Assembly: GCA_046597055.1 (NCBI GenBank)
Contig: JBKJLC010000164.1
Span: forward strand, 1 to 28,326
Length of the DNA stretch: 28,326 nt
DNA from: Kofleriaceae bacterium
GTDB taxonomy: Bacteria; Myxococcota_A; Polyangia; Haliangiales; Haliangiaceae
Reading direction: 5' to 3'
The first letter of the stretch is position 1, and every line of letters starts with the position of its first letter. Of this stretch, positions 3,605 to 26,934 are shown piece by piece. The translations under genes were made by a program, and so were the position numbers. Below the pieces are notes generated by a model, which saw only the letters and a list, made by a program, of their open reading frames with translations, was not told the DNA's origin and ran no database searches.

Positions 3605-5176
3605 ATGACCGAAGACACCCACGGGTTCCACTTCGAGCGGCGCCACCTGGCGCTCGCCTGCGCCGACGTCGGCTGCTTCGAGCTCGATGCCGAGGCCGGC
3701 ACCATCAAGCTCGACCGGCGGGCCGCCGAGCTCGTCGGGATCGAGACGGGGGGCCAGGTCGGGCTCGACGACTACCTCGCGAGGCTCGAGCCGCTCGATC
3801 GCGACCGGGTCGCGCGTCGGGTAGCCACCGCGGTCGCCTCCAGTGGCGACGCTTACCAGGACGAGTTCCGGACCCAGGCGCGACGGTGGATCGCGGCCGA
3901 CGGGCGGGTCGCGCACGACAGCACCCAGCGACGCATGGTGCTGGTGGGGTTGCTCCGCGACGTCACGCTGCGGCGCACCACCGAAGACGAACGCGCGCGT
4001 CTGGTCGACGAGATGGCGAGGACCATGAGGTTCAACGACATGCTGGTCGGCATGGTCGCCCACGACCTGCGCGGTCCGCTGTCCGCCGTCCTCATCGCGG
4101 CGCAAGGCGTCGGCGCTCACGTCCAGGACGACGGCGTCCAGCGCAACGTGGCGCGGATCGAGCAGAGCACCGGCCGGATGTCACGCATCGTCGAGCAGCT
4201 GGTCGATCTGACCCACGCCCGGCTCGACGGCCAGATTCCGTTCCGCTTTCGCCAGAGCGACCTGGCGACGATCGCCCGGCAGGTCTCCGCCGAGACCATG
4301 GCGGCCCACGCGGGCGCGGTGATCGCCGTCGCCGCGAGCGCCGACACGCACTGCAACTGCGACCCCGAGCGTATCGCCCAGGTGGTCTCCAACCTGGTCG
4401 CGAATGCCGTCCTGCATGGCACCGACGTGCGGGCGGTGGGCGTGACCGTCGACGGCGGCGGCCCCGATGTCGTCAGGCTGACCGTGGCCAATCCCGGCCG
4501 GATCGCCCCCGAGACGCTCCCGACGCTGTTCAATCCCTTCCGCCGGGTCCGCCTCGACCAGCCCGCGGGCGGTCGCAGCCAGGGGCTCGGGCTCGGCCTG
4601 TACATCGCGCGTCGGATCGTCGTCGGACACGGCGGGCAGATCACGGTGATCACCGCCGAAGCGCAGGGCACGGTCTTCTGCGTCGAGCTCCCGCGGCAGG
4701 CCGCCTCGGCCACGTTCTCGTTGACGCCCGACGCCGGCGAGGAGGAGGCGATCTCGCTGCAGCGCCTCGGCGTCGCCGATCAGCCGAGCCGGGTCACGGC
4801 GTCCCTGTTCGGCGTGTTGCCGCTGCACGAGCGTGCCCCGGATGCGTTCGCGTCGCTGGTCGAGCGCCATGCCCGCCTGCTCGACGTCTCGCTCGACCGA
4901 CAGATCTATCGCGGCGCCGGCAAGAGCCTCGCGACCGACCTGCGGAGCCTCGCCGATCAGCTGGGCACGCTCGCGGCCGGCGCCGCCGACGTCGCCGAGC
5001 TCCACTCGCGCGCGCTGCAGGCCGCGCTCCGGGGCGCACCCGCCCAGAAGACCACCACGCTGGTGGCCGAGGGCCGCCTCATCGCGCTCGAGTTGATGGG
5101 CCGCCTCCTGACGTTCTACCGCAAGCGCGCCGGCCTGGGCGCGCTGCCCACCGGATCGCCTGGCCGCGGCGCGTAG
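3605..5176 (+). CDS. PAS-histidine kinase fused to a C-terminal KaiA/KaiA3-like domain (523 aa)
   Basis: PAS/PAC (...RWIAADGRV...LVGLLRDVT); H-box VAHDLRGPL, N-box SNLVANAVLHG, F-box LFNPF, G2 GLGLGL. C-terminal about 125 aa (VTASLFG...LADQLGTLAAGAADVAELH...EGRLIALELMGRLLTFYRK) matches the KaiA3 C-domain pattern from memory. Directly upstream of kaiB-kaiC. Confidence 0.85.
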   Translation: MTEDTHGFHFERRHLALACADVGCFELDAEAGTIKLDRRAAELVGIETGGQVGLDDYLARLEPLDRDRVARRVATAVASSGDAYQDEFRTQARRWIAADGRVAHDSTQRRMVLVGLLRDVTLRRTTEDERARLVDEMARTMRFNDMLVGMVAHDLRGPLSAVLIAAQGVGAHVQDDGVQRNVARIEQSTGRMSRIVEQLVDLTHARLDGQIPFRFRQSDLATIARQVSAETMAAHAGAVIAVAASADTHCNCDPERIAQVVSNLVANAVLHGTDVRAVGVTVDGGGPDVVRLTVANPGRIAPETLPTLFNPFRRVRLDQPAGGRSQGLGLGLYIARRIVVGHGGQITVITAEAQGTVFCVELPRQAASATFSLTPDAGEEEAISLQRLGVADQPSRVTASLFGVLPLHERAPDAFASLVERHARLLDVSLDRQIYRGAGKSLATDLRSLADQLGTLAAGAADVAELHSRALQAALRGAPAQKTTTLVAEGRLIALELMGRLLTFYRKRAGLGALPTGSPGRGA

Positions 5177-5201: not shown

Positions 5202-5519
5202 ATGACGACCTTCCACCTCGAGCTCTACGTGATCGGCCAGTCCGTGAAATCGGAGATGGCGATCGCCAACGTCGAGCGGATCTGCCGGGATCGGCTGCCC
5301 GGTCGCTATCGCCTCGACATCATCGACGTCCTCGATCATCCGGAGGCCGCCGAGGAGGCCAACATCATCGCGACGCCCACCCTGATCCGCAAGAACCCGG
5401 TGCCGGTTCGCCGGGTCATCGGCGACCTGTCGCCGACCGAGGCCGTCCTCGCCGGGCTCGGGATCGACGCAGTACCCGTGGCAATCCCCGACAACGAAGG
5501 CAGCGACCGCAATGGCTAA
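5202..5519 (+). CDS. kaiB: Circadian clock protein KaiB (KaiB3-like)
   Basis: LELYVIG...S..AIAN..RIC...YRLDIIDVLDHPEAAEEANIIATPTLIRKNPVPVRRVIGDLS: canonical KaiB motifs; overlaps the kaiC start by 8 nt. Confidence 0.95.
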   Translation: MTTFHLELYVIGQSVKSEMAIANVERICRDRLPGRYRLDIIDVLDHPEAAEEANIIATPTLIRKNPVPVRRVIGDLSPTEAVLAGLGIDAVPVAIPDNEGSDRNG

Positions 5520-7026
5520 CACCCAGCACGAGATCGAGAAGCTGCCCACGGGCATCCCCGGGTTCGACCTGATCGCGGTGGGCGGGCTGCCGCGCGGGCG
5601 CTCCACGCTCGTCAGCGGCACCGCCGGCAGCGCCAAGACGGTCTTCGCCCTGCAGTTCCTGGTCGAGGGCGCCGCGCTGGGTGAGCCCGGCGTGTTCGTG
5701 ACGTTCGAGGAGACCCCGGACGACCTGCGGCGGAACATGCTCGGCTTCGGCTGGGATCTGGCCAAGCTCGAGGCCGAGGGCAAGTTTCGGTTCGTCGATG
5801 CGTCGCCGCGCCCCGAGGAGGAACGGATCGAGGCCGGCTCCTACGACTTCGGCGCGCTGGTCGCGCGCATCGAAGCGGCCCAGCGCAAGATCGCCGCCAA
5901 GCGGGTCGCGCTCGATTCGCTCGGGGCGGTGTTCACCCAGTTCGCCGATGCCGGCGCGGTGCGCCGCGAGCTCTTTCGACTGCACGCCGCGCTCAAGAAG
6001 CTCCAGCTCACCGCGCTGATCACGTCGGAGCGCAACGAGGAGTACGGCACGATCTCCCGGCATGGCATGGAGGAGTTCGTCGCCGACAACGTCGTGATCG
6101 TGCGCAACGTGCTCGAGCAGGAGAAGCGCCGGCGGACCATCGAGATCCTCAAGTTCCGCGGCACCCCGCACCAGAAGGGCGAGTATCCGTTCTCGGTCAC
6201 CGACCGCGGGATCATCGTGATCCCGCTGTCGGCGATCGACCTCCGGCAGAAGTCGACCACGGTCCGGGTCACGTCGGGCAACGGCGAGCTCGACGTGATG
6301 TGCGGCGGCGGCTTCTTCCGCGACTCGATCATCCTGGTGTCGGGCGCCACCGGCACCGGCAAGACCTTGACGGTCACGGCCTTCACCGCCGGCGGCATCG
6401 AGCAGGGCGAGCGGTGCCTGGCGTTCTGCTTCGAGGAGAGCCGCGAGCAGTTCTTCCGCAACGCGGCCGGGTGGGGCTTCGATTTCGAGAAGCTCGAGCG
6501 CGAGGGGCGCCTCAAGGTCGTCACCGACTACCCGGAGATCATGCCGCTCGAAGATCACCTGCTGCGCATGAAGCGGGTGATCGAAGAGTTCAAGCCCAAC
6601 CGGGTCGCGGTCGACAGCCTGTCGGCGCTCGAGCGCGTCTCGACCATGCGGAGCTTTCGCGAGTTCGTGATCGGCTTGACCGCCTTCGTCAAGCACCAGG
6701 AGATGGCCGGGTTGTTCACCTCGACCACCTCCGACCTGCTCGGTGGCACTTCGGTGACCGAGGCGCACATCTCGACGATCTGCGACTCGATCATCCTGCT
6801 CCGCTACGTCGAGATCCTCGGCGAGATGCGCCGCGGCATGACGGTTCTGAAGATGCGCGGCTCCCCCCACCAGAAGCAGATTCGCGAGTTCTTGATCGAT
6901 GGCGCCGGCATGCACATCGGCAAGGCGTTCCGGAATGTCACGGGGATCATCTCGGGGCACCCGGTGCAGCTGTCGGTGCCGCCCGAGGAGATCGAGCGGT
7001 TTCGCCATCTCTTCACGGAGGAGTAG
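5512..7026 (+). CDS. kaiC: Circadian clock protein KaiC (KaiC3-like, double RecA domain, 504 aa)
   Basis: CI P-loop GTAGSAKT, FEE, KFRG; CII P-loop GATGTGKT, FEE, KMRG; phosphosite motif TEAHISTICD (S421/T422 at 6772-6777); A-loop FRNVTGIISGHP and C-terminal tail. Confidence 0.97.
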   Translation: MANTQHEIEKLPTGIPGFDLIAVGGLPRGRSTLVSGTAGSAKTVFALQFLVEGAALGEPGVFVTFEETPDDLRRNMLGFGWDLAKLEAEGKFRFVDASPRPEEERIEAGSYDFGALVARIEAAQRKIAAKRVALDSLGAVFTQFADAGAVRRELFRLHAALKKLQLTALITSERNEEYGTISRHGMEEFVADNVVIVRNVLEQEKRRRTIEILKFRGTPHQKGEYPFSVTDRGIIVIPLSAIDLRQKSTTVRVTSGNGELDVMCGGGFFRDSIILVSGATGTGKTLTVTAFTAGGIEQGERCLAFCFEESREQFFRNAAGWGFDFEKLEREGRLKVVTDYPEIMPLEDHLLRMKRVIEEFKPNRVAVDSLSALERVSTMRSFREFVIGLTAFVKHQEMAGLFTSTTSDLLGGTSVTEAHISTICDSIILLRYVEILGEMRRGMTVLKMRGSPHQKQIREFLIDGAGMHIGKAFRNVTGIISGHPVQLSVPPEEIERFRHLFTEE

Positions 7027-7032
7027 GCGTCG

Positions 7033-7719
7033 ATGATGACCCCCGCGCGCATCCTGTACGTCGAGGACGACGACGACATCCGCGACACCATGACCATGCT
7101 CCTCGAGCACGAGGGCTACCACGTCACGCCGATGGCGACCGCCGAGAGCGCCCTCGAGGCGCTGACCCGCCACCGCTTCGACCTGCTCCTCACCGACTAC
7201 CAGCTCCCCAACGAGAACGCCGACTGGCTGATCGCGTCGGGCAAGGCGCGCGGCTGTCTGCTCGACACCGCCGTGATCGTCCTGAGTGGGACCGATCACC
7301 CGCGCGGGATCGACGCCTACCGACTGCTCCGCAAGCCGGTCGGCCAGGAGGCGCTGCTGGCGGCCTTCGACGAGGCGATGGGGAGCCGCGGGGTCGCGCC
7401 GCTGGCGACGCTCGGCGGGAACGCCGAGCTGCGGCTGGTCCTCTACGTCTCGGGCGAGTCCCAGGCGTCGCGCAAGGCCCAGCGCAACCTCCAGCTGGCC
7501 CTGCACGGCATCGCCGAGGACCGCATCGCGATCATGGTCCACGACGTCACCGGGACCGATCACGCCTGGGAGAACGCCGCCGAGGACGACCGGATCGTCG
7601 TCCTGCCGACGCTGGTGCGCCATGGGCCGCTGCCCAAGGTGTGGATCGCCGGGGACCTGTCCGATCATGCCCTGGTCCGCGACGCGATCTTGCCCGCGTC
7701 GATGCGGACGCGGGACTGA
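7033..7719 (+). CDS. Response-regulator receiver fused to a KaiB-like domain (228 aa)
   Basis: Intact REC (YVEDD, LLLTD, VLSG, RKP) followed by KaiB-like LVLYVSG..S.KA..NL...DDRIVVLPTLVRHGPLPKVWIAGDLSD; RBS GGAGGAG lies in the last kaiC codons. Confidence 0.9.
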   Translation: MMTPARILYVEDDDDIRDTMTMLLEHEGYHVTPMATAESALEALTRHRFDLLLTDYQLPNENADWLIASGKARGCLLDTAVIVLSGTDHPRGIDAYRLLRKPVGQEALLAAFDEAMGSRGVAPLATLGGNAELRLVLYVSGESQASRKAQRNLQLALHGIAEDRIAIMVHDVTGTDHAWENAAEDDRIVVLPTLVRHGPLPKVWIAGDLSDHALVRDAILPASMRTRD

Positions 7720-7721
7720 GC

Positions 7722-8840
7722 ATGGACCACATGGACGAGCCCGTGGCGGCCCCGGCGGTCCTGCTGGTCGAGAGCAACCCGGCCAACCTCCGCGCGCTGC
7801 GCGCCGTGGTCGACACGCTGGGCCGGCCGGTGATCGAGGCGACCTCGGGGCCGGCGGCGCTCGCGCTCCTCGACCAGCACGAGGTGACGCTGATCGTGAT
7901 GGCCGTGCAGACCCCCGGGCTCGACGGCTTCGCGACCGTCGCGATGATCCGCGCCGATAAGCGGCGGAGTCACATCCCGATCGTGTTCTTCGCCGCCGTT
8001 CACGATGACCCGGCGGCGGTGGCGCGCGGCTACACGCTGGGCGCGGTCGACTACGTCACCATGCCGTTCGACGCGGAGGTCGTGCGCGCCAAGCTTCGCG
8101 CGCTGGTCGGCTGGTACGAGCAGGGTGAACAGCGGCGCCTGGAAGCCGAGGCGCTCGCGTTCGAGCGAGCGGTGCACGCCGAGCGAGAACGGATCCTCGG
8201 GCTGGTCGCCCACGACCTGCGGAGCCCGCTGGCGGTGATCCAGACCGGCGTCGACTACCTGCACGCGCGCGGTGGGCTACGGGTCGACCAGGAGAAGATC
8301 GTCGGCCGCATCCAGCGCAACGCCGCGCGGATGGGGCGCCTGGTCAGCGACCTGCTCGACTTCACCCGGCTGCAGAACGGCCCGCTGATCATCCGGCCCC
8401 GGCCCGCGAGCCTGGCGACCATCGTCTCGGAGGCGGTCGAGGATCTCCAGTTGCTGACCTCGCGCGCGATCGGGCTGTCGGTCCACACGCCGGGCGGCAC
8501 CAGCTGCGACGAGGATCGGGTCACCCAGGCGATCTCGAACCTGGTGCTCAACTCCGTGCAGCACACCCCGGCCGACGCCCGCGTGCAGGTGGAGCTCCGC
8601 GCCGATGGGGACGCGTTCGAGGTCAGCATCTGGAACGATGGCGAGCTCAGCTCGGAGGACGCGGCGACCCTGTTTCAGCCGTTCCGCAAGGGCACCAGCA
8701 GCGTCGGCATGGGCCTCGGCCTCTACATCTCGCAGCAGATCGCGCGCGCCCACGGCGGCGATCTGTCGATGCGCTCCTCGGCGGCGAGCGGCACGACGTT
8801 CACGCTGCGGCTGCCGGCCGCGGCGCCCGCCACGGATTGA
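7722..8840 (+). CDS. Pseudo-receiver-histidine kinase (372 aa)
   Basis: REC fold with degenerate catalytic residues (VESN, IVMAVQTP, FFAA, YVTMP); HisKA VAHDLRSPL; HATPase SNLVLNSVQH, LFQPF, GMGLGL; ATG 2 nt after the upstream stop. Confidence 0.9.
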   Translation: MDHMDEPVAAPAVLLVESNPANLRALRAVVDTLGRPVIEATSGPAALALLDQHEVTLIVMAVQTPGLDGFATVAMIRADKRRSHIPIVFFAAVHDDPAAVARGYTLGAVDYVTMPFDAEVVRAKLRALVGWYEQGEQRRLEAEALAFERAVHAERERILGLVAHDLRSPLAVIQTGVDYLHARGGLRVDQEKIVGRIQRNAARMGRLVSDLLDFTRLQNGPLIIRPRPASLATIVSEAVEDLQLLTSRAIGLSVHTPGGTSCDEDRVTQAISNLVLNSVQHTPADARVQVELRADGDAFEVSIWNDGELSSEDAATLFQPFRKGTSSVGMGLGLYISQQIARAHGGDLSMRSSAASGTTFTLRLPAAAPATD

Positions 8841-11964: not shown

Positions 11965-12458
11965 CGAAATCGGGCGTCGGGGCCGACATGGCACCGGCGC
12001 ACGGCTACCCGGGGGCGGCTCAGTTCGTGTCCGGCGTCGGGATGATGAAGGGCTACGGCGCCAGGTTCCACGACAACGCCACCCACCTACAGGATGTCGG
12101 CGGAGGCCCGCCGCCACAGCGCCAGCGTGTACACCGTCGCGACCTGCGCCATGCGCTTGCGGTGGCGCTTCTCACCCGTCGTCAGCCGCGTTTCGAGCCG
12201 ACGCGGCTTCGTCGCGGGGCTCGCAGAACGGGCTGTCGTTGGCGATCCTCTTGGCGTTCGTCGTGCTCATCGGGCCGGCGACGCTACCCGCGACCGATCG
12301 ATCCAGATAGATGCGACACGATCAAGCTGCGCGAATCGATGGCATCTCGCCAGCAGGTGCGGCTGCCCAGGGTGGTCAACCTCGCTGGCGGCGCTGCTTC
12401 GCTCGGTTCGCGGCTCGAGCCCCTGGCGGGGGCGCCCGGGCGCGTGCGCTCACGACCG

Positions 12459-12707
12459 GGCGGCGTCGAGGCGATCGAGTACCTGCGTGCCCATCCGCAG
12501 GAGCCGTCGGTGATGCTGCTCGACCTGATGCTGCCGCGGCTCGACGGCCAGGGCGTGCTCGAGACGATGGCGGCGGAGGGCATCACGGTGCCGGTGATCG
12601 TGGTCACCGCGTCGCGGAACCCGACGGTGCCGGCCGGCGTCCGCCTGCTGCAGAAGCCGATCGCGACGGTCGCGCTGGCAGCGGCGATCTGCGAGGTCTG
12701 CGGCTAA
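12459..12707 (+). pseudogene. N-terminally truncated response-regulator receiver
   Basis: GVEAIEYL...MLLDLMLPRLDG...VIVVTA...LQKP present, but beta1/acidic pocket and alpha1 are missing; upstream in-frame sequence is unrelated. Confidence 0.7.
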
Positions 12708-12800
12708 AGGCGCGACGGGTTGCGCACGAGCGTGTGCAGTGGCCCCTCGCGACCCTATGGCCGCCGTACCCGAACGGAGTGCGTCCGAGGGCTTGGCGCC

Positions 12801-12816
12801 TGGAACGAGGCTTGCT
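12801..12816 (+). promoter_or_regulatory. Putative sigma54 (-24/-12) promoter
   Basis: TGGAACGAGGCTTGCT versus TGGCACG-N4-TTGCW (one mismatch); ends 12 nt before ATG 12829. Confidence 0.7.
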
Positions 12817-12828
12817 CGGGCACCCTCC

Positions 12829-14145
12829 ATGCCCAACATCTCCGGAATCACTCTCGCCGCGTGTCTGGCGGCGGTCGGCTCCACGGCTTGTGACGTGGGA
12901 GAGGTCGACAACGGCAAGGCCGGCGATGGACTCGACGAAGGCGACCGGGAAGCCACTGGCGCCATCGCGTCGCAGGTCTGCGGTCGCGGCGCGACGACGC
13001 TCGGCATCGACGTGTCGTTCTATCAGGGCGCCTTCAACTGGACGACGGTCAAGGACGCCGGCGTCGAGTTCGCGTTCATCCGGGTGTCCGACGGGCTCGG
13101 CTACCGCGACAGTCAGTTCGCCCGCAGCTGGACCGAGGCCAAGCGGGCCGGCGTCATCCGTGGCGCGTACCAGTTCTTCCGGCCCGGCGAGAGCGCCATC
13201 GCCCAGGCCGACCTGCTGGTCGACGCGATGGGCACGCTCGCGCCAGGCGATCTGCCGCCGGTGATCGACGTCGAGGCCACCAGCGGCCTCGGGGCGGCCA
13301 CGGTCGCCGCCCGGGTCCAGACCTGGGTCGACCGGGTCCGCACCCGCACCGGCCGCACGCCCATCGTCTACACCGGCAAGTACTTCTGGCAGGACAGCGT
13401 CGGCAACTCGGCGGCCTTCAAGACCCTGCCCCTGTGGCTCGCGCAGTACACGTCGGCGGCATGCCCCAACCTGCCCGATGCCTGGTCGAGCTGGAAGTTC
13501 TGGCAGTACTCCGATCGCGGCTCGATCCGCGGCATCAGCGGTGGCGTCGACGTCAACCGCTTCAACGGCACGCTCCAGGACCTGCAGACGTTCATCGCCG
13601 CAAGCGGCGGCGGCCCGAACCCGTCGGTGGCGATCGAGGTCTACTGGGCGCGGGAGGCCGATGGCACCTACCAGCTCCGGGCGCTGGCACCCGCCGCGAT
13701 CGCCCGCGTCGACTACCTGGTGGACAACAACATCATCGGCGGCGCCAGCCGCGGCGCGGGCGGCAACTTTCCGGACAGCTACCGGTTCACCTCGGCTGGC
13801 ACGGGCCGGGCCTTCGAGATCCGCGGATTCGACGCCGCCAACCAGCAGATCGGCCTTGGCGTCGGCTCCATCGACGTGACCGACGGCACCGCCGTGTACA
13901 TCAAGCAGCTGGGCGCGGCGCTCTACGAGATCGGCCTCGAGCGCCCGCCGACGGGCCTCCAGGCCATCGAGGTCCGCGCCGATGGCATCCTCCTCACCGA
14001 CAGCGTCAGCGGGGTGACCCGGGTCAGCCGCAACGCCGTCCGCTCCCGTTTCAACACGCTGGGCTCGCGCCGGTTCGAGATCACCACCTACAACGCCAAC
14101 GGCACGGTGCGCGGCCGCCTCGACCGCACGTTCACGCTGCGCTGA
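12829..14145 (+). CDS. GH25 lysozyme (muramidase), probable lipoprotein, with two C-terminal beta-sandwich-like repeats
   Basis: GIDVSFYQG, GAYQFF, catalytic DVE, IVYT, LWLAQY, WQYS, VDVN; N-terminal signal peptide with Cys (LAAC/STAC). Confidence 0.92.
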   Translation: MPNISGITLAACLAAVGSTACDVGEVDNGKAGDGLDEGDREATGAIASQVCGRGATTLGIDVSFYQGAFNWTTVKDAGVEFAFIRVSDGLGYRDSQFARSWTEAKRAGVIRGAYQFFRPGESAIAQADLLVDAMGTLAPGDLPPVIDVEATSGLGAATVAARVQTWVDRVRTRTGRTPIVYTGKYFWQDSVGNSAAFKTLPLWLAQYTSAACPNLPDAWSSWKFWQYSDRGSIRGISGGVDVNRFNGTLQDLQTFIAASGGGPNPSVAIEVYWAREADGTYQLRALAPAAIARVDYLVDNNIIGGASRGAGGNFPDSYRFTSAGTGRAFEIRGFDAANQQIGLGVGSIDVTDGTAVYIKQLGAALYEIGLERPPTGLQAIEVRADGILLTDSVSGVTRVSRNAVRSRFNTLGSRRFEITTYNANGTVRGRLDRTFTLR

Positions 14146-14348: not shown

Positions 14349-17204
14349 ATGGGCGAGCTGGGATGGGGCCTTCGCGGGCAGACGGGCGGCGGTGATCGCA
14401 ACGAGGAACGAGAGCTGTGGATCCGCGAGGAGCTCGCGCGCCGGCTCGCGTTTCAGCCCGTGCGCGAGATCGCCGCGATCTACGCCGAGTTGTACGACCA
14501 GTGGGAGCAGCGCGCGACGACGCCGCCACCGATCGCGCTGCGGCGGCGACCAGGACCGGCCGGCAAGCGGACGCGGACGCTGCCCCTGGCCGCCGCGACG
14601 CCGGCCCCACCGGGCCCGATGGTGCGGCGCGAGATCGACGGCGCCGGGCAGGTGACGCCGGACGTTGCGGAGGTGCTTGATCGCGCCCTGCGGGGTGCGG
14701 CCGAGCGGCTCGACCCGCAAATCCGCGCGCGGCTGGAGCAGTTGCTCGGGCGCGAGCTCGGCGACGTCCGGATCCACCGCGACGGGCCTGCCGACGACGC
14801 GGCACGCGCGCTCGGTGCGCGGGCGTTCGCGGTCGGGCGCGACGTCTTCTTTCGCGACGGCAACTACGACCCGGGCACGGCGGAGGGGGCGCGCCTGATC
14901 GCGCACGAGGTGGTCCACACCCAGCAGCCCGAGCGCACCGAGCCCGGTGGGCTGCAGCTCAGCAGCCCTGGCGATGCGTCGGAGCGCGAGGCCGACGCCC
15001 TCGCTGACACCTTCGTCGGCGTGCTGAGCGAGGCCGACCGCGCCCGCACCGACCAGCGCGCGTCCGAGGCCTTCGGCCCCGCGCGCCCGGCGCCGGCCGC
15101 GCTATCATCGTCGCGCCGCGCCGCGGTGTCGCGGGTCGACGAGCCGGGGCGCCGCCCGGCGCCGATCGCGATCCCGCCCGGGGGAGTGGCGGTCGATCAG
15201 GTCGGGGTGGTGGCCTGGGACGGGGCGCCTGAGCTGCGACTGCGCGCGACGCCGTCGACGACCGACGACAACACGATCGGCAATCTGCCGCTGAACACCC
15301 ACGTCCAGGTGATCAAGCGGTTTGCAGGCGACTGGCTGTTCGTCTCGACCCGCGACGGCCGCATGGGCTACGTCGCGGCCGCCTACGTGTGGACCGCGCC
15401 GCAGCACCCGCTGCCAGAGCCCAACGCGCGGCTCCACCGGGTTGAAGCCGGGGTGGAGGGCACCGCGATCGCGATCGCGGAGCGCTACTTCCGCGCGGTC
15501 GCCGACGACTGGGGGCAGGACCTCCGCTTCTACGTCAACGTGATTGCCGCGGTGAACGGCGTCAGCATTCCGTCGGGGGTCGACGGCTGGCGATCGGTCC
15601 ACTTCCAGGCCGGGCGGTTCATCTGGATCCCGAGCCTGATCTTCGCGCGCGGGATGCGCGGCCAGGTCAGCTCGGGCTCCTACACGTACGAGGCCGCCGA
15701 CGCGCTGGGCGTCGCCAGCGTGATCGAGCGCGCGGCCGAGCTGCTGTCCGATTTCCGGACGGCCATCGGGCTGTCCCTGCAGTACATCCCGGCCGCGGTC
15801 GCGCGCCATGCCGAGGAGGCGATCATCGCGGTCCTCCAGTCGCTCGCGCTGATGGCGGTGGGCGCGATCGCCCTCCTGGCGATCAGCACGGCGATCGGCG
15901 CGGCGATCGGCGCGCTGGCCGGCGGCGTCGGCGCGGCCCCGGGCGCGGCGGTCGGATTCGAGGTCGGGATGGCGCTGCTCGAGTGGATCGGGCTGGCGAT
16001 GCTGGTCGCGTGGCTAGGCACGTCGATCGCACGGATCGGGACGGCGTTCGGTGCCTTCATCGGCACCGTGTGGAACGCGCGCGGCGATCGCGCGCAGCTC
16101 GAGCTCGCCGCCCACCAGTTCGCCGAGGCGATCGGTACGCTGATCGGGGTGCTGATCGAGGCGCTGGTGATGTGGGCCGCGGCCCAGGGTGCTACCGCGG
16201 CGGTCGGCGCGCTGCGCGGCACCGCGTTCGGACGGGCGTTTGGCGAGTCGCGGCTCGGCACCTGGTTGACCGAGCGCATCGCACGGTACCAACGCGGCGA
16301 GACGACCTTGCCGGGCCCGCGCGAAGCCCTGCTGCGCGCACGTGCGCGCCAGCTGGCGCCACGCCTCGGGCTCACCGAGGCCGAGACGCTCGGGCTTCTG
16401 CGCGCGCTCGACGCCCCGACCCTGACCGGGCTCAAGGACGAGGTCGGCGTCGAGGGGCTGCGCTCCCTGGTCGGCCGGTCCGAGGGTGTGCTGGCGGCGA
16501 TGGCGCGCGCGCTCGCGATCACCGGCGCCGATCCGGCGGCGCGCGCGGCGCTGATCGAGGGCGCCCGGCTCAACGGCCGCGGCACGCTGTCGAACAGCGT
16601 GTTCGAGCAGGCACTCGACGCGTACACCGCGTTCCGCGCGCGCTACGGCAACCGGGCTTCGGGAGACTTCGCCAGCCGCTTCTGGCGTCGCCTGGGACAA
16701 GACACCCGCCAGGCCGAAGCCGAGATCCGCCTGGCCGAGGATCTCCTCGCGGGGCGGACGCCGCTGGGCGAGGCCAGCCGCGTCGACGGGTTACCCGAGA
16801 GCACGGTGGCTGGCGAGCGCGTGCCGGAGTACCGGGTGACCACACCGGAGGGCGCACGCCTGGTCGAGAGCAAGGCCATCGGCGAGCCGGGACGCCCCCT
16901 GACCGAGACCTCGGTCGGCAACAACGCCCGCAGCGCCAACCAGCAACTCCGCGACCAGGCCGGGCGCACCGGCGAGACCGAGGGCGGTCTGATCCGCCTC
17001 GACGGACGCGACGCCGGCAACACCGCGGCGACGCCGGCCCAGATCGGTGAGTGGGTCAGCGCGCGCATCCCGAGCCCGCGCCCGAGCCGGGTCACCGGGT
17101 GGGTCGAGGTCTTCTACCGCGACGCTGGCGGACGCACGATGCGCGTCGTGCTCCGGCTTGACGGCACCCGCTTCGTGGTCCACACCTCGGAGGTGATGCT
17201 GTGA
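14349..17204 (+). CDS. DUF4157 (eCIS core domain) polymorphic toxin: DUF4157-SH3b-LysM-like-hydrophobic region-putative nuclease C-terminus
   Basis: LGDVRIH..ARAFAVGRDVFF..YDPGT..G.RLIAHEVVHTQQ (HExxH 14904-14918) plus EREAD; SH3b LRLRATPST...GDWLFV..GYV; long Gly/Ala hydrophobic helices; C-terminal E...PEYRV...VESK. Confidence 0.85.
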   Translation: MGELGWGLRGQTGGGDRNEERELWIREELARRLAFQPVREIAAIYAELYDQWEQRATTPPPIALRRRPGPAGKRTRTLPLAAATPAPPGPMVRREIDGAGQVTPDVAEVLDRALRGAAERLDPQIRARLEQLLGRELGDVRIHRDGPADDAARALGARAFAVGRDVFFRDGNYDPGTAEGARLIAHEVVHTQQPERTEPGGLQLSSPGDASEREADALADTFVGVLSEADRARTDQRASEAFGPARPAPAALSSSRRAAVSRVDEPGRRPAPIAIPPGGVAVDQVGVVAWDGAPELRLRATPSTTDDNTIGNLPLNTHVQVIKRFAGDWLFVSTRDGRMGYVAAAYVWTAPQHPLPEPNARLHRVEAGVEGTAIAIAERYFRAVADDWGQDLRFYVNVIAAVNGVSIPSGVDGWRSVHFQAGRFIWIPSLIFARGMRGQVSSGSYTYEAADALGVASVIERAAELLSDFRTAIGLSLQYIPAAVARHAEEAIIAVLQSLALMAVGAIALLAISTAIGAAIGALAGGVGAAPGAAVGFEVGMALLEWIGLAMLVAWLGTSIARIGTAFGAFIGTVWNARGDRAQLELAAHQFAEAIGTLIGVLIEALVMWAAAQGATAAVGALRGTAFGRAFGESRLGTWLTERIARYQRGETTLPGPREALLRARARQLAPRLGLTEAETLGLLRALDAPTLTGLKDEVGVEGLRSLVGRSEGVLAAMARALAITGADPAARAALIEGARLNGRGTLSNSVFEQALDAYTAFRARYGNRASGDFASRFWRRLGQDTRQAEAEIRLAEDLLAGRTPLGEASRVDGLPESTVAGERVPEYRVTTPEGARLVESKAIGEPGRPLTETSVGNNARSANQQLRDQAGRTGETEGGLIRLDGRDAGNTAATPAQIGEWVSARIPSPRPSRVTGWVEVFYRDAGGRTMRVVLRLDGTRFVVHTSEVML

Positions 17205-17845: not shown

Positions 17846-18055
17846 CGCGTCCCGGCGCTGCCAGCTCGATCGCGGCGGTCGACGCCGCCGGCCACGGGCG
17901 TGAGCGGGCAGACCCGTCTGGCGGTGCGACGTGCGCTGTTCGCAGGTAGTGCGAGCGACTGTTACCGCGCGAAGGTTCGCAGAACCGGGCCCAGCGCACG
18001 ACGATGGCCCCAGGTCGAGCGGCTGGGGAGCGCGCGCGGCCCGGAAGGTCCATTC

Positions 18056-20227
18056 ATGCTGTCCAGACCGCTGCTCTTGTCGCTCACCACCGCCGGGCTT
18101 TGGGCATCGAGCTCGGGGTGCACGCCGGGTGCCGTCGACGATGCGTCAGCCCCGCGCGCCGCCCCGATCGGCATCGTCACCCCGTGGGGACCCTTCACGC
18201 GCGTCGATCGGGTCGCGGTCGCCCCCGATGGCGTGCCCGATTTCATCCGCGGCAGGCTCGGCGAGGTCGCGCCGGCCCGCCTCGCCGCCGCACGCACGGC
18301 GGAGGAGGCCGCCGAGGTGCTCCAGGCTGCGCTGCCGCAGCTGGTCGCGGCCTTCGGCGTCTCGCCCGACGGGCTCGTCGCCACCAGCGTCCGGCGCGAC
18401 CGGCTCGGCATGACCCACGTGCGCTACGCCCAGTCCGCCAGCGGCCTGCGCGTGGTCGGCGGTGAGTTGGTCGTGCACGTCGCGGCCGACGGCCTGATCC
18501 GCGCGGTGACCGGCACGGCCCGCGACGTGGCTGCGGTGAGCGTGATCCCGGTCGTCGGCCAGGCCGAGGCCGCCACCATCGCGCGCCTCGCGACCGCGCA
18601 CGGCGACGTCGACGTGCACAGCACCGAGCTGACCTACGTCCTGACGACGCGCGACGGCCGTCCCCACCTGGCCTGGGAGGTCGGCGTGATCGGCCGCGAT
18701 GGGCTGCTGGTCATCGACGACGTCTACGTCGACGCGCATGACGGCCGCGTCGTCGACCGTCGCCCGCACGTCTTCACCGCGCGCAACCGCGAGATCTTCG
18801 ACGCCCAGGGCCGGTCTCCGCCGTTCTTCGGCAGCCCCGGCCCTCGCCTCGGCACCGAGGTCAGCCCGCCGACCGAGACCGTCGGGCTCGCCGCGTTCAG
18901 CAACACCGGGATCACCTACGACTGCTACCAGGACCTGTTCGGCCGCGACTCGTACGACGACGTCGGCGCCAAGCTGACCTCGGTCGTGCACGTGCGCTTC
19001 CGCACCCCGAACGGCATGAGCACCGGCAACAACGCCGCGTGGATCGGCGGGTTCGGCGGCGGCGGCGGCCAGATGGTCTACGGCGACGGCGACGGCACGC
19101 TGATGGGCCCCACCAGCGAAGGCTTCGACGTCACCGCCCACGAGCTCACCCACGCCGTGACGTCGTCGACGGCGCAGCTGGCCTACCAGAACGAGTCGGG
19201 CGCGCTCAACGAGGCGATGAGCGACATCATGGCCGCCGTGTGCGAGGCCTGGCGCGATCAGGCCGTCAGCCCCAACACCTGGCTGATCGGCGAGCAGATC
19301 TTCACCCCGGCGACCAGCGGCGACGCGCTGCGCTACATGGCCAACCCGACCGCCGACCGCGCGCTCTACCCGCCTGCGCTCGGCGGGTCGCGTGACTTCT
19401 ACGCGGATCGTTACGCCGGCACCGAGGACAACGGCGGCGTCCACCTCAACTCGGGCATCGCCAACCTGGCGTTCTACCTCCTGACGCAAGGCGGCACCCA
19501 TCCGCGCCAGCGCACCACGTTCGCGGTCCCCGGCATCGGCATCACCAAGGCCGGGGCGATCTTCCAGCGCGCCCTCACCGAGGGCTACCTCCTGCAGAAC
19601 TCGACGTTCGCGCAGGCCCGCACCGCCACCGAGGAAGCGGCCATGGATCTCTACACCGCCGCCGAGGTCGCCGCGGTCGGCACGGCGTGGGCAGCCGTCG
19701 GCATCGGCGAGCGGCCGGCGGTCGACACCACGCCGCCGCAGGTCGCCATCACCGCGCCGGCCGACGGCGCCATCGTCGCGCCCGGCGTCGCGGTCGACGT
19801 GACCGCTGGCGACGATCAGGGCGTGCTGCGCGTCGAGCTGGCCGTCGACGGCGTGACGGTCGCGATGGACACCACCGCGCCGTACGCGTTCACCACGGCC
19901 GCCGACCTGGCCGCCGGGCCGCACACGATCACCGCCACCGCGTTCGACACTGCCAACCAGGCCACCGCGACGATCGACGTCACCGTCGACAGCGGCGACG
20001 GCTCGAGCTGCACGCCGACCTGCCCGACCGGCGCGGTCTGCACCGACGGTGTCTGTGTGCCACCCGGCGCGAGCGCCGACGGTGACGAGGCCGGCGGCTG
20101 CGGCTGCACGACCGCAGCCGATCCCCGCGGCACGCTGGTCCTCGTCGCGCTGATCGCTGGCGCCTGGCGCCGGCAGCGGCGCATCGGCGGCGCGACGGCC
20201 CGAACCAGGCCGCGCCGATCACGGTAG
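18056..20227 (+). CDS. M4 (thermolysin/bacillolysin) metalloprotease with FTP/PepSY propeptide, Ig-like domain and MYXO-CTERM tail
   Basis: DRLGMTHVRYAQ (FTP), YVDAHDG (PepSY), NNAAW, HELTH, GALNEAMSD, GGVHLNSG; DTTPPQVAITAP Ig-like domain; GGCGC..LVLVALIAGAWRRQRR tail; RBS-like GGAAGG. Confidence 0.93.
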   Translation: MLSRPLLLSLTTAGLWASSSGCTPGAVDDASAPRAAPIGIVTPWGPFTRVDRVAVAPDGVPDFIRGRLGEVAPARLAAARTAEEAAEVLQAALPQLVAAFGVSPDGLVATSVRRDRLGMTHVRYAQSASGLRVVGGELVVHVAADGLIRAVTGTARDVAAVSVIPVVGQAEAATIARLATAHGDVDVHSTELTYVLTTRDGRPHLAWEVGVIGRDGLLVIDDVYVDAHDGRVVDRRPHVFTARNREIFDAQGRSPPFFGSPGPRLGTEVSPPTETVGLAAFSNTGITYDCYQDLFGRDSYDDVGAKLTSVVHVRFRTPNGMSTGNNAAWIGGFGGGGGQMVYGDGDGTLMGPTSEGFDVTAHELTHAVTSSTAQLAYQNESGALNEAMSDIMAAVCEAWRDQAVSPNTWLIGEQIFTPATSGDALRYMANPTADRALYPPALGGSRDFYADRYAGTEDNGGVHLNSGIANLAFYLLTQGGTHPRQRTTFAVPGIGITKAGAIFQRALTEGYLLQNSTFAQARTATEEAAMDLYTAAEVAAVGTAWAAVGIGERPAVDTTPPQVAITAPADGAIVAPGVAVDVTAGDDQGVLRVELAVDGVTVAMDTTAPYAFTTAADLAAGPHTITATAFDTANQATATIDVTVDSGDGSSCTPTCPTGAVCTDGVCVPPGASADGDEAGGCGCTTAADPRGTLVLVALIAGAWRRQRRIGGATARTRPRRSR

Positions 20228-20889: not shown

Positions 20890-23800
20890 ATGCCCAGCGA
20901 GCGCGCACCCATGCTTGCCGTCCCTGGCTACACGCTGCAGCAACAGATCCACGGAGGCCGCCGATCCTCCGTGTATCGCGCCTGGGCGGTGAACGACCAG
21001 CAGCGGGTGGTGCTGAAGGTGAGCCCGGCGGCCTCGACCGACCCGACCGCGCTGATCCGGTTCCGCCACGAGTACCGGCTCGGCCGGACGTTCGCGCACG
21101 AGCACGTGCTGAGGTACCTGGCGCTCGAGCCCTGCGGCGAACGCCTCGCGCTCGTCGAGGAGGACGTCGGTGGCCGCGCGCTGGCCGAGCTGCTGGCCGA
21201 CGGCCCGCTCGGGCTCGACACGGCGCTGGACATCGCGATGAAGATCGCCCGCGGGCTGGGCGAGATCCACGCCCACGAGGTCATCCACCGCGCGATCTAT
21301 CCCGGCAACATCCTGGTCGACCCCGCCCGCGGGATGACCAAGATCTTCGACTTCGCCGACGCGACGTTGATCCGCCAGCACGCGGAGCCCGCGCTCCGGG
21401 CGCGCGACCTCACGCTGCCGCTCGCGTACATCTCGCCGGAGCAGACCGGCCGCATGAACCGCGAGGTCGATCATCGCACCGACATCTACTCGCTCGGCGC
21501 CACCCTCTATCACATGCTCGCGGGGCGCCCCCCGTTCCCTGACGACGATCCGCTCGCGCTGGTGCATGCCCACATGGCACGCGTGCCGGTGCCGCTCGCC
21601 GACCTCGATCCGCGCATCCCCGACGTGGTGTCGCGGCTGGTCGACCGCCTGCTCGCCAAGGACCCCGAGGATCGCTACCAGAGCGCGCCCGGCATCGTGG
21701 CCGACCTGGCCGACGCGCTGCGCCGCCTGCGGCTCAACGGCGAGGTCGACAGCTTCCCGCTGGGCCTCGCCGACGCCCCGGATCGCCTCGAGCTGCCGCG
21801 CCGCCTCTACGGCCGCGCCCGCGAGCGCCAGCGGCTGCTCGACGGCTTCGAGCTCGCCGCCGCCGGCGGCAAGCGCCTGTTCCTCGTGGCCGGCCACTCG
21901 GGGGTCGGCAAGTCGTCGCTCGTCCACGAGGTCCGCCGCCCCGTCGTCGAGCGCCACGGCTTCTTCCTGGCCGGCAAGTTCGATCAGCTGCACCGCAACG
22001 TACCCTACGCCGCGCTGCGCGCCGCGTTCCAGCAGCTGTGCGACGAGCTCCTGTCGGGCAGCGAGGACGAGCTGCGCGGCTGGAAGACGCAGATCCTGGC
22101 GCGGCTCGGCGCCAACGCCGCGCTCATCGTCGAGCTGGTGCCCGGGCTCGCGAAGATCATCGGCCCCCAGCCGGCCGCGCCGCCGACCGGCCTGGTCGAG
22201 TCGCAGCACCGCTTCACCGTCGCGGTGCAGCGGTTCGTCGGCGTGCTCGCCAGCGCCGCCCATCCGGTCGTGCTGTTCCTCGACGACCTGCAGTGGGCCG
22301 ACCCAGCCACGCTCCACGTCGTGCGCGCGCTGCTGACCAGCGCCGACCTGACCCACCTGCTGGTGATCGGCGCCTATCGCGACCACGAGGTCGACGCCGC
22401 CCACCCGCTCGCGCTCGCGCTCACCCAGCTCCGCGCCGCGAGCGTGCCGGTGCACGAGGTGGCGCTGCGCGACCTGTCGAGCGACGACGTCGGGACCCTG
22501 GTCGCCGACGCGCTGCGCGCGCCCCGCGACACCGTGGTCTCGCTGGCGCGCCTGGTCTTCGACAAGACCTCGGGCAACCCGTTCTTCATCGACGAGTTCC
22601 TGCGCACGCTGGCGCGCGAGAAGCACCTCACGTTCTCGACCGCGCTGCGCGCCTGGACCTGGGACCCGCGCGCCATCGAGGCGCTCGGCATCACCGCCAA
22701 CGTCGTCGAGCTCATGGTCGAGCGCCTGCAGCGGCTGGCCGAGCCGGTGCAGCGCGCGCTGCGCATCGCCGCGTGCATCGGCGATGACTTCGCGCTGTCG
22801 ACGCTGGCCCAGGCCGCCGACGCTTCGCCCAACGCGACCCGGGCCACGCTCGAGCCAGCGATCCGCGCGCGCCTGCTCGTGCCAGTCGACAGCGCGTACC
22901 CGTTCGACGAGCCCGGCGCCAGCGGCGCGACGCCGGGCCCCGACTACGCCTATCGCTTCCTGCACGACCGCGTCCGCCAGGCGGCCTACGAGCTCACCCC
23001 GGCGGCCGACCGCCCGGCGCTGCACCTGAGCATCGGTCGCCTGCTGCTGGCCCGGACGCCGCCCGCCGACCGCGCCGCCCGCGTGTTCGACATCACCGAC
23101 CAGCTGGTGCGCGGCGCCACGCTGGTGCACGACCCCGCCGAGCGCCGCGAGCTCGCCGAGCTCTGCCTGCTCGCGGGCAAGCAGGCCCGCTCGGCCACGG
23201 CCTACGTCGAGGGCCTCGCGTACCTGCGCGCCGGGCTGGCCGCGTTGCCCGCCGAGGCGTTCGCGAGCTGCTACGACCTGAGCTACCAGCTGCACCTGCG
23301 GGCCGCCGAGTGCGCGTACCTCGCCGGCGAGTTCGACGTCGCCGATACCCTCGCCGACGCGCTGCTGCCGCAGCTGCGCTCGCCGCTCGAGCGCGCCGAG
23401 CTCTACACGGTGCGCATCGTGCTCGAGGCCAACCGCACCCGCTATGATCGCTCGGTCGCGCTCGGCATCGAGGCGCTCGCCGCGCTCGGCGTCGACGTGC
23501 CGGCGCGGCCGAGCACGCCGGCGCTGCTGCGCGCGCTGGCCCGGGCCCGGCTGGCGCGGTTTCGCCGCCGCAAGGTCGACCTGGCGACGCTGCCCGACCT
23601 GACCGACCAGCGCCGGCTCGCCGCGATCTCGATCATCGAGCACCTGTTCGCGCCGGCGTACTTCATGGACCCCAAGCTGTTCTTCTGGCTGGTCCACGAG
23701 TGCCTGCGCATCTCGCTGCGCCACGGCAACGCGCCGCCATCAGCGGTGGGCTACGTCAGCTACGGCCTGCTGCTCGCCGCGGTCATGGGCAAGTACGAGG

Positions 23801-26800: not shown

Positions 26801-26934
26801 CGGGCTACTCCGATGCGGTCCTGTCCGCCGAGGGCGTGCTCGAACCCGGCGTGCACCTGCTCCGCAAGCCGTTCACGGTCGACGATCTGCTCGGCCGGGT
26901 CGAGGCCCTGCTCGCGACCGCGGTCCCGGCGTAG
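20890..26934 (+). CDS. Hybrid Ser/Thr-kinase-like / AAA ATPase / GAF / PAS / histidine kinase / receiver protein (HstK-like, 2014 aa)
   Basis: STK (VVLK, YISPEQTGRMNR, DIYSLG); Walker A GHSGVGKS, Walker B FLDDLQW, GNPFF; helical repeats; GAF (AAISIENARL); H-box VAHDFNNLL, DTGTG, FEPFFTTK, GTGLGL; REC VEDD..SDMVMP..SGY..KPF. Confidence 0.95.
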   Translation: MPSERAPMLAVPGYTLQQQIHGGRRSSVYRAWAVNDQQRVVLKVSPAASTDPTALIRFRHEYRLGRTFAHEHVLRYLALEPCGERLALVEEDVGGRALAELLADGPLGLDTALDIAMKIARGLGEIHAHEVIHRAIYPGNILVDPARGMTKIFDFADATLIRQHAEPALRARDLTLPLAYISPEQTGRMNREVDHRTDIYSLGATLYHMLAGRPPFPDDDPLALVHAHMARVPVPLADLDPRIPDVVSRLVDRLLAKDPEDRYQSAPGIVADLADALRRLRLNGEVDSFPLGLADAPDRLELPRRLYGRARERQRLLDGFELAAAGGKRLFLVAGHSGVGKSSLVHEVRRPVVERHGFFLAGKFDQLHRNVPYAALRAAFQQLCDELLSGSEDELRGWKTQILARLGANAALIVELVPGLAKIIGPQPAAPPTGLVESQHRFTVAVQRFVGVLASAAHPVVLFLDDLQWADPATLHVVRALLTSADLTHLLVIGAYRDHEVDAAHPLALALTQLRAASVPVHEVALRDLSSDDVGTLVADALRAPRDTVVSLARLVFDKTSGNPFFIDEFLRTLAREKHLTFSTALRAWTWDPRAIEALGITANVVELMVERLQRLAEPVQRALRIAACIGDDFALSTLAQAADASPNATRATLEPAIRARLLVPVDSAYPFDEPGASGATPGPDYAYRFLHDRVRQAAYELTPAADRPALHLSIGRLLLARTPPADRAARVFDITDQLVRGATLVHDPAERRELAELCLLAGKQARSATAYVEGLAYLRAGLAALPAEAFASCYDLSYQLHLRAAECAYLAGEFDVADTLADALLPQLRSPLERAELYTVRIVLEANRTRYDRSVALGIEALAALGVDVPARPSTPALLRALARARLARFRRRKVDLATLPDLTDQRRLAAISIIEHLFAPAYFMDPKLFFWLVHECLRISLRHGNAPPSAVGYVSYGLLLAAVMGKYEDANRFGRLGLALAERYAWTERQAKLHVMFGLFIDHFRNPARDSLEYVRRAVAEGLESGDIVYASIAAANHAEGAALVGDPLDEVFRQAEAGERFARPLRHGDVNTMFLLLKQFVRCLRGETDGIASLSGQGVDESVLVADVKAAEARIMLAIYLIWKVELLVLFHRPAEAMELVLGYDETIEAMTAGQLRVTEYGYCACLAAIGCLRAADPSGARRRPLRRVLARKRKRLAAWAASGPANYLHKHLLVEAELADLDGDADRATALYDRAIHEARGSGYQQHAAFAAELAGHALARRGRGVIAETYLREARTGYVRWGATAKVRALDAAHPTLAPPPPPRPTSISESLDLVSVLRASQAISSEMDLGRLLERTMRLVAENAGADRAALIVDAGGELRIEAMLDVRSNTLEVLTGRRLDASGVVPEGIVRFVARTSEDVVLAHAVREGAFMHDAYVRAHDARSLACLPVRHQDRTTGVLFLENELTAGAFTTERLEVLRFLVAQAAISIENARLYDSTRTLNQALRASETRLDAFLEGLPVGVFVLEYDGRPSFANRKAREIAAAEPGLPAPDVVARYAMVTAGTATPYPPARLPLARALRGETSMIDDVEVHVDGRVVPLAMWGTPIRAEDGSVRYAVVAFQDIGPQRVAERARGRLEAQLKTAERLESVGRLAGGVAHDFNNLLTPMLILSQMALRSLPADSRAHGQITQVLASAERAADLTRQLLAVGRKEVLETRLLDLDAEVADFMSMLRRLVRANVEIIHRPAATPCRVHGDRGQLQRVLMNLGMNAADAMPDGGELFIETSAVTLDAADLRERPDIEPGGYVALQFRDTGTGIDARTLQRIFEPFFTTKPPGEGTGLGLPTVHGLVAQHRGHVRVQSELGVGSTFEILLPHAEPNAIAAAPPVEPAVVDRAPASDRTLLVVEDDDDVRRLLVSVLTDSGYQVVATGDPTQAPGLARQLGARLGLVISDMVMPRLNGRELAAQLTREHPHLPVLFVSGYSDAVLSAEGVLEPGVHLLRKPFTVDDLLGRVEALLATAVPA

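Follow-up and report, generated by a model that had tools for sequence, protein, structure and literature searches.

A receiver-KaiB fusion and a KaiA3-bearing histidine kinase in a myxobacterial kai operon: a putative two-component input into KaiC

The window analysed here, a stretch of 28,326 nucleotides from a Kofleriaceae bacterium, contains an operon that, judged from its sequence, is a KaiA3-B3-C3-type system with a built-in two-component pair, in which the kinase sits on the activator and the receiver on a second inhibitor. A phosphorylation signal would likely tune the clock ATPase KaiC directly through this operon. In the reading that we favour, with a probability of about one half, the upstream kinase would phosphorylate the receiver and so gate the binding of a pre-switched KaiB to the CI ring of KaiC, as argued from the gene content and by analogy to studied Kai proteins.

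Gene content of the operon

The genes and domains of the operon are the following.

3605..5176, + strand: PAS-HisKA-HATPase histidine kinase with a C-terminal KaiA3-type domain (Pfam, structural and sequence comparison); the start is uncertain, with a database call lying 91 codons earlier
4739..5131, + strand: KaiA3-type C-terminal helical domain within this kinase (ESM atlas, VIA, BLAST, alignment by eye)
5202..5519, + strand: stand-alone kaiB, 105 aa, with mixed ground-state and fold-switched sequence signs (Pfam KaiB, 84.2 bits)
5512..7026, + strand: kaiC, 504 aa, two domains, with B-loop segment, S421/T422 phospho-sites, A-loop and short tail, overlapping kaiB by 8 nt (TIGR02655, 630.6 bits, cut-off 546.25)
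7033..7719, + strand: receiver-KaiB fusion protein, 228 aa (Pfam Response_reg and KaiB, relatives, AF2 model)
7042..7386, + strand: receiver domain of the fusion, about residues 4-118, with E11/D12, phospho-acceptor D55 (7195-7197), S85, K101 and the family-invariant W65, alpha4 missing (alignment, AF2 model)
7429..7689, + strand: KaiB part of the fusion (Pfam KaiB, alignments, AF2 model; thioredoxins are the non-receiver structural matches)
7722..8840, + strand: pseudo-receiver, with Asp, Thr and Lys sites replaced, joined to a HisKA-HATPase kinase; accessory (Pfam, synteny)

The fusion starts 6 nt after kaiC, and the second kinase starts 2 nt past the fusion. With a GC3 of 0.96 the fusion gene does not differ from the housekeeping genes of the window. 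Searches for sigma-70 promoters and for terminators gave no matches. Other genes on the plus strand of the window encode a GH25 lysozyme (12739-14145), a 951-aa protein with eCIS-core (DUF4157), SH3 and DUF6861 domains (14349-17204) followed by a 214-aa gene without Pfam match, a thermolysin-type M4 peptidase with Ig domains (17900-20227), and a 2014-aa Ser/Thr kinase-AAA-TPR protein (20890-26934). The 951-aa protein and its 214-aa neighbour look like a secreted effector with its partner.

Receiver and KaiB are joined in an extended protein family

Within the fusion, Pfam identifies Response_reg at residues 7-111 (46.3 bits, cut-off 30.2) and KaiB (PF07689) at residues 137-215, where the score of 37.2 bits lies above the cut-off of 27. 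Two sets of relatives were collected. The first comes from a protein search with 88 matches, of which 85 near-full-length sequences were aligned and three partial or unrelated rows dropped, and the second comprises the best 120 of 217 matches at E 1e-10 or better from a profile search for longer proteins. All 120 of these best matches contain both Pfam domains, and no sequence is shared between the two sets. With at least 205 clusters, the receiver-KaiB fusion thus represents a protein family and not a chance joining, although the relatives were picked by similarity and are kin to each other, so that counts among them are not counts of independent events. Their identity to the window protein goes down to 33%. 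The profile of the family matches all KaiBs in the PDB (E 3e-12 to 2e-9). An initial annotation of this DNA, made from the sequence alone, had described a receiver joined to a second, divergent KaiB, and this description holds for the window protein as well as for its relatives.

A shortened receiver with a complete catalytic set

Phosphorylatable receivers have five catalytic residues, namely DD, D, T/S, and K (PMC12632262). All five are present in the window protein (E11/D12, D55, S85, K101), in 83 of the 85 members of the first set, and in 120 of the 120 listed members of the second, which makes 203 of 205. The model of the receiver is also close to solved receivers at a Z of about 19, among them 7c1j (VIA Z 19.6, rmsd 1.6 over 116 residues). 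Thus, the receiver appears catalytically intact, as had been proposed, though it is not fully canonical by alignment and model. The spacing from the catalytic Thr/Ser to the Lys is only 16 residues in 83 of the 85 first-set members compared to 22 in CheY, and the AF2 model lacks alpha4 and does not have the full (beta-alpha)5 fold. The residue at K-3 is aromatic in 47 of the 85 members of the first set, in none of the 120 listed members of the second set, and is a Leu in the window protein. Because of the absent alpha4 and the low conservation of an aromatic residue at K-3, the usual output route of receivers is, according to alignment and model, degraded. Another residue is kept throughout the family, which is a Trp ten residues after the phospho-acceptor (D+10, W65; 205/205).

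Elsewhere in the window (about 12300-12707, + strand) there is a stand-alone receiver, whose alpha4 region is apparently shortened too.

Fold state of the fused KaiB domain

The fused KaiB is predicted to lean to the fold-switched, KaiC-binding state. The initial annotation had reached the same view through a G89A/D91R-type signature. Its alignment after the GDLS motif is correct, with A218 corresponding to T. elongatus G89 and L220 to D91, so that the Asp is lost, and the stand-alone KaiB of the window indeed keeps the Gly at the G89 position. The signature itself holds up only in part. Gly and Asn are completely absent from the G89 column of the fused KaiBs (0/205), which contains V, A, M, L, I, or T. 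However, the Ala of the window protein is found in only 25 of the 205 sequences (25/85 in the first and 0/120 in the listed second set), and Arg at the D91 position is restricted to seven (4/85 and 3/120). The window protein itself has Leu there and therefore does not combine G89A with D91R. Either exchange by itself, G89A or D91R, leaves the two folds about equally populated in constructs of T. elongatus KaiB (10.1101/2024.05.21.594594).

Substitutions studied in Rhodobacter KaiB describe the fused domain better. The triple exchange I68R/V83D/N84A raises the fold-switched share from 11% to 86% as determined by NMR (PMC10808063; the main text once prints N84R, the methods and legends N84A), and L64E or V83S alone shifts the fold to the switched state (10.64898/2025.12.30.697132). 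Numbering was transferred through an alignment with 8FWJ, in which a two-residue offset places L64, I68, V83, and N84. The positions 64/68/83/84 correspond to G198/K202/D217/A218 in the window fusion, which thus carries a basic residue at 68, a polar residue at 83, and neither Gly nor Asn at 84. Within the family, Lys or Arg is found at position 68 in 192 of 205 sequences (74/85 and 118/120 listed) and a polar residue at position 83 in 185 (69/85 and 116/120 listed), while position 84 is neither Gly nor Asn in any of the 205. The strict combination of K/R at 68, D/E at 83, and not G/N at 84 is present in 52 of 85 fused KaiBs versus none of 16 stand-alone KaiBs, these being the window's own and 15 from related operons. 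By sequence, the Rhodobacter triad accordingly fits the fused KaiB better than G89A/D91R does.

The stand-alone KaiBs give a less uniform picture. All 16 have Val or Leu at 68 and 14 of the 16 have Gly at 84, while position 64 is Ala, Asn, or Thr and position 83 varies among Tyr, Arg, Ala, Asp, and His. In the window's stand-alone KaiB, Val at 68 and Gly at 84 stand beside an Asn at 64, the gating position, an Ala at 83, and a Gly where D91 would be. Given these mixed signs, its kept Gly is no proof of a metamorphic state, and its role as supplier of the delay, as proposed in the initial annotation, is hypothetical.

A structure prediction had been suggested as a check on the fold state. Computed from a family-only alignment, the AF2 model of the fusion (pLDDT 91.2, pTM 0.77) shows the fused KaiB in the fold-switched, thioredoxin-like topology with a pLDDT of about 90. 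However, AF2 favours that state even for a ground-state KaiB (PMC10808063), and for this reason the model is weak evidence. The VIA matches of the whole fusion model are receiver domains and thus uninformative for the KaiB part. Mean-field couplings between the domains, such as Y56-S143 and G92-L209 (205 sequences, effective number 121), were set aside as they may be phylogenetic noise.

The C-terminal half of fold-switched KaiB faces KaiC in solved complexes (reviewed in PMC6378743), and the corresponding segment is the best-kept part of the fused KaiB. P63 is present in 205 of 205 fused KaiBs, and K58 is replaced by Arg in 196 of 205. The surface itself seems to be altered because D79 of the GDLS motif is Thr or Ser in 117 of the 120 listed second-set members (a GTLS/GSLS subclade), the A61 position is a Val in 82 of 85 sequences, and there is an insertion of about four residues before alpha2. 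The beta2 position argues against a role in binding KaiA. Where KaiBs that capture KaiA have a lysine, a basic residue is present in only 4 of the 205 fused KaiBs, compared with 14 of the 16 stand-alone ones, although the stand-alone KaiB of the window lacks it as well. Therefore, the fused KaiB may hold CI without trapping KaiA3.

A quick, unrooted tree (61 rows, 98 columns) separates the fused (33) from the stand-alone KaiBs (28) by one long branch (SH-aLRT 100). As the two groups fall on two sides of one branch, the fused KaiB seems to be an old separate line. A recent duplication of kaiB within the operon was rejected based on this tree.

KaiC subtype

The window KaiC matches PDB 8ZN5 with 691 bits, KaiC1 with about 580-590 bits, and Rhodobacter KaiC2 with 318 bits. 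The window KaiC is closest to the reconstructed ancestor KaiC-beta, followed by KaiC1, and is far from KaiC2. By sequence similarity to KaiC-beta, KaiC1, and KaiC2 it is thus on the KaiC1/KaiC3 side and not on that of KaiC2. The B-loop segment and S421 are kept in all 16 aligned KaiCs, and the tail is kept in the relatives.

The Walker A motif of the CI P-loop (window 5617-5640, + strand) has an Ala before the Lys in 16 of 16 aligned KaiCs, where the canonical residue is Gly. The genome encodes a second kaiC-kaiB pair (C117:1-1680), and at least two further KaiC-like genes, both divergent, are located on C196 and C292.

A KaiA3-type domain on the upstream kinase

The main partner of the fusion, overlooked as such in the initial annotation, is the kinase encoded upstream of kaiB. 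About 140 residues past its ATPase domain have no Pfam name. Pfam KaiA (PF07688) has no match in this C-terminal domain or anywhere in the genome, and profiles built from the kinase tail retrieved no KaiA from the PDB or Pfam; one profile was dominated by receiver columns. In the ESM atlas the tail adjoins clusters of KaiA (score 0.93). A model of the domain (pLDDT 85) retrieves KaiA chains at ranks 1-8 in VIA (Z 9.9-10.9, rmsd 2.5-5.2, 90-105 aligned residues), where the margin to the next family at Z 9.5 is small and all values are below the Z of 13 advised for helical bundles. The identity of the domain is settled by sequence. Counted by eye, 42 of 111 residues are identical to Synechocystis KaiA3 (Sll0485; sequence from the supplement of PMC11372060), and in BLAST the domain matches a 299-aa cyanobacterial receiver-fused relative (P0193) with 38% identity over 115 aa (E 6e-28). 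On these alignments the C-terminal domain is of KaiA3 type, and because the upstream kinase carries it we read the system as KaiA3BC and not as KaiBC.

The family of KaiA3-type domains has 1,285 representatives at E 1e-10 and is not represented by a Pfam model. Among 51 hand-picked top matches, kinase fusions predominate at the highest ranks, and fusions to receiver, PAS, GAF, or MEDS domains make up most of the remainder. Searching plasmids with a KaiA3-like protein yielded partial matches only.

Nearly all KaiA3-fused kinases listed retain the H-box and the N-box. In the G1 box, the usual Asp is replaced by Asn in all 18 listed except for the kinase of locus L088, which has Tyr. The Asn form is a minority in this genome (6 of 51 pattern-matched kinases), and with the G1 Asp replaced by such a minority residue the activity of the KaiA3-fused kinase is not certain. 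The downstream pseudo-receiver kinase also has an Asn in its G1 box.

From its position and its conservation with the fusion, the upstream kinase is likely the cognate kinase of the fused receiver. Control by the kinases of the operon had been proposed before, and of the two kinases it is the upstream one that can be retained. The receiver of the downstream kinase is dead, and this kinase was rejected as core partner because a clear match was obtained only at locus L088, the nearest relative found.

Phylogenetic distribution and gene order

Among 80 loci from genome contigs, 17 cover the whole fusion. They derive from 16 genomes titled Myxococcota-type or Deltaproteobacteria, plus one Vicinamibacterales. 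In all 17, kaiC adjoins the fusion or sits one paralogue away. The order kinase-KaiA3, kaiB, kaiC, receiver-KaiB is found in 14 of the 17 loci, mostly from Myxococcota, and two more loci are cut inside kaiC. Accordingly, a KaiA3 domain is encoded upstream of kaiB-kaiC in the window and in 14 of the 17. Locus L005 contains the fusion and kaiC in another orientation, together with a kinase that has no KaiA3 domain. Of 80 metagenome loci, some of which duplicate genome loci, 16 covered the fusion. There, kaiC is found upstream of the fusion in 15, while the sixteenth has only 118 bp of upstream sequence, and the KaiA3 domain is present in all 6 loci that reach far enough. The kaiC adjacency and the conservation of the KaiC-facing segment both suggest that the fused KaiB is aimed at KaiC. 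Sequence, model, and synteny support the proposal that a KaiB leaning to the fold-switched state is governed by a functional receiver and directed at KaiC, and they do so on a firmer footing than G89A/D91R.

The pairing of fusion and KaiA3 is not obligatory because searches of the genomes of L005 and G104, both with fusion and kaiC, gave no KaiA3 match. In G104 (L168, C69:19800-21900), a divergent kaiC (36% identity) immediately follows a related fusion, and a further KaiB is not found within 14 kb. Two receiver-KaiB paralogues each are present in L001 (7327-8678, in tandem) and in L017 (7104-8666, divergent); these paralogues keep both family tryptophans. A second divergent KaiC-like gene is located close downstream in L003 (11115-12287) and in L015 (8712-10612), in the latter after a small receiver-like gene.

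The operon is rare, and its distribution is patchy. A KaiA3 domain was detected in 2 of 41 near genomes and in 1 of 301 genomes sampled across the phylum, with 14 candidates scored per genome. A GC content of 72%, a size of 8.4 Mb, the genes present, and the titles of related loci point to Myxococcota as the host. The sequencing runs that best match the operon are soil metagenomes of one study, two of which may be where the DNA came from, and no RNA dataset is among the matches listed. A link to phototrophy was rejected, as a reaction-centre gene is present in 1 of 18 operon-bearing genomes, which is not this one, and in 0 of 41 relatives. The exception is a Polyangiaceae genome (L007, G047) with both the operon and photosynthetic reaction-centre genes.

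How the operon could work

In Synechocystis, KaiA3 stimulates the phosphorylation of KaiC3 and KaiB3 opposes it, and the three proteins form one large complex with a damped rhythm (PMC11372060). Fold-switched KaiB in general binds to the B-loop of CI, where it competes with SasA and offers its beta2 strand to KaiA or CikA (reviewed in PMC6378743). Taking the roles of KaiA3 and of the ordinary KaiB from the biochemistry of KaiA3B3C3 and KaiABC, the KaiA3 domain of the kinase would stimulate KaiC phosphorylation via the C-terminal tail of KaiC, and the stand-alone KaiB would be the ordinary inhibitor. The path of the signal is drawn from domain order and synteny and would run from PAS over the kinase and D55 to the fused KaiB. 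A signal at the PAS domain would set the activity of the kinase, phosphate would pass from the kinase-KaiA3 protein to D55, and phosphorylation of D55 would alter the availability of the fused KaiB. Without the need for a slow fold switch, the fused KaiB could quickly occupy the B-loops of CI and there seed or block the stand-alone KaiB. The outcome would be a signal-controlled reset or a fast feedback arm on the KaiA3BC cycle. This cycle may run as a circadian clock, work as an hourglass, or serve as a switch under stress. Rhodospirillum KaiC did not oscillate with Synechococcus KaiA (PMC12081879).

We infer the feedback of the fused KaiB onto CI, and the signal could also run the opposite way, as in SasA and CikA. 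The fold-switched KaiB would then be a sensor that docks on post-hydrolysis KaiC whatever the phosphorylation, the receiver would meet the kinase-KaiA3 protein on the same hexamer, and the phosphate on D55 would report the state of KaiC or drain the kinase, as an output. We consider this possible, though on the unlikely side. SasA reads KaiC through a fixed thioredoxin-like KaiB domain in competition with KaiB for the B-loop (PMC6378743), and the profile of the fusion family reaches SasA weakly (E 0.0014). According to PMC11372060, no SasA/RpaA-type output is known for KaiC3, and a single KaiA3-KaiB3-KaiC3 complex as described there would set kinase and receiver on one scaffold. The absent alpha4 of the receiver would also fit a phosphate sink. 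However, N-terminal receivers normally control their C-terminal domain, and no conserved phosphotransfer or DNA-binding partner is found downstream of the fusion in the genome and metagenome loci. In addition, the invariant W65 and the pTM of 0.77 hint at a fixed contact between receiver and KaiB in the model, as regulation in cis would need.

It is quite improbable that the fused KaiB has lost KaiC binding and is a generic thioredoxin-like interaction domain for the kinase, the KaiA3 linker, or another signalling protein. Such a loss would agree with the divergence of the domain (37 versus 84 Pfam bits), with its long branch in the tree, and with the change of GDLS to GTLS or GSLS in one subclade. 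It is hard to reconcile with kaiC adjoining the fusion in the genome and metagenome loci, even in L005 with its different orientation, and with a cis-Pro loop motif that is the best-kept part of the domain. A still metamorphic fused KaiB, whose ground-to-switched equilibrium would be shifted by receiver phosphorylation, is very improbable: although the prolines implicated in slow switching are kept in the first set (P63 85/85, P70 75/85, P72 78/85) and in T. elongatus constructs carrying just G89A the two folds are only about equally populated (10.1101/2024.05.21.594594), the same cis-prolines are needed by stably fold-switched KaiBs, the V-x-x-hydrophobic-hydrophobic pattern at residues 215-219 suits an amphipathic helix and not a strand, and the polar 83, the K/R 68, and the loss of L64 (Leu in 3/85) disfavour the ground state according to the Rhodobacter experiments (PMC10808063; 10.64898/2025.12.30.697132).

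Returning to phosphorylation-gated binding of a pre-switched KaiB to CI, a further-reaching picture would be a self-contained four-protein oscillator of non-photosynthetic soil bacteria. The kinase would be the KaiA activator, the receiver a permanently fold-switched KaiB, and KaiC a scaffold that times phosphotransfer, with phosphorylation replacing or overriding fold switching for delay and entrainment. This picture is speculative and we would call it rather doubtful.

Relation to other Kai systems

The operon resembles the KaiA3-KaiB3-KaiC3 system of Synechocystis sp. PCC 6803 in its C-terminal KaiA3 domain (Sll0485), the gene order A3-B-C, and a KaiC of the KaiC1/3 side with adjacent Ser/Thr sites. 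The KaiA3 orthologues described in PMC11372060 have 275-318 aa and mostly an N-terminal receiver, for which a cognate kinase is not known. In the window, in contrast, KaiA3 is on the kinase itself (PAS-HisKA-HATPase, without N-terminal receiver) and the receiver is on the second KaiB. With the fold-switch-stabilised KaiBs (KaiB-RS-3m I68R/V83D/N84A, KaiB-TV4 8UBH, Lpp1115 4KUN, and T. elongatus G89A/D91R 5JWO, 5JYT) the fusion has the residue classes at 68/83/84 and the predicted topology in common, but it differs by a W at the R75 position, the insertion before alpha2, and the lack of D91R. A receiver has not been described on any of those KaiBs, and the N-terminal extension of KaiB-4 is unrelated.

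As in SasA, a fixed thioredoxin-like KaiB domain would join KaiC to two-component signalling. However, the KaiB-like domain of SasA is N-terminal to a kinase, whereas in the window the domain follows a receiver and KaiA3 is found on the kinase. The fused KaiB is also far nearer to KaiB than to SasA (49.6 versus 21.9 bits). Kinases with an N-terminal KaiB-like domain are found beside kaiC in Ramlibacter (PMC3164672). The pseudo-receiver of CikA bound to fold-switched KaiB (PDB 5JYV) is similar in that a receiver fold and a fold-switched KaiB would act as one unit on KaiC, but CikA acts in trans with a dead receiver, while the pair in the window is fused and keeps its catalytic residues. Other KaiA and KaiB architectures have been catalogued (PMC8113500, PMC5520375). 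Neither a KaiA3-kinase nor a receiver-KaiB fusion was found described in the open full-text literature, which leaves subscription journals largely outside.

According to a 2024 survey, none of the myxobacteria examined encodes kaiA, and their KaiCs have no B-loop (PMC11832031). The operon contrasts with this picture, as its KaiA3 is hidden in a kinase and its KaiC keeps the B-loop segment. According to PMC11372060, neither the input kinase nor the output route is known for KaiA3-B3-C3 systems, and the operon brings its own kinase and receiver. Its four soluble proteins could be mixed in vitro, which would open a route to studying two-component input into a Kai cycle. The operon bears on a possible phospho-regulation of a naturally fold-locked KaiB and on possible three-component Kai timers in non-photosynthetic bacteria.
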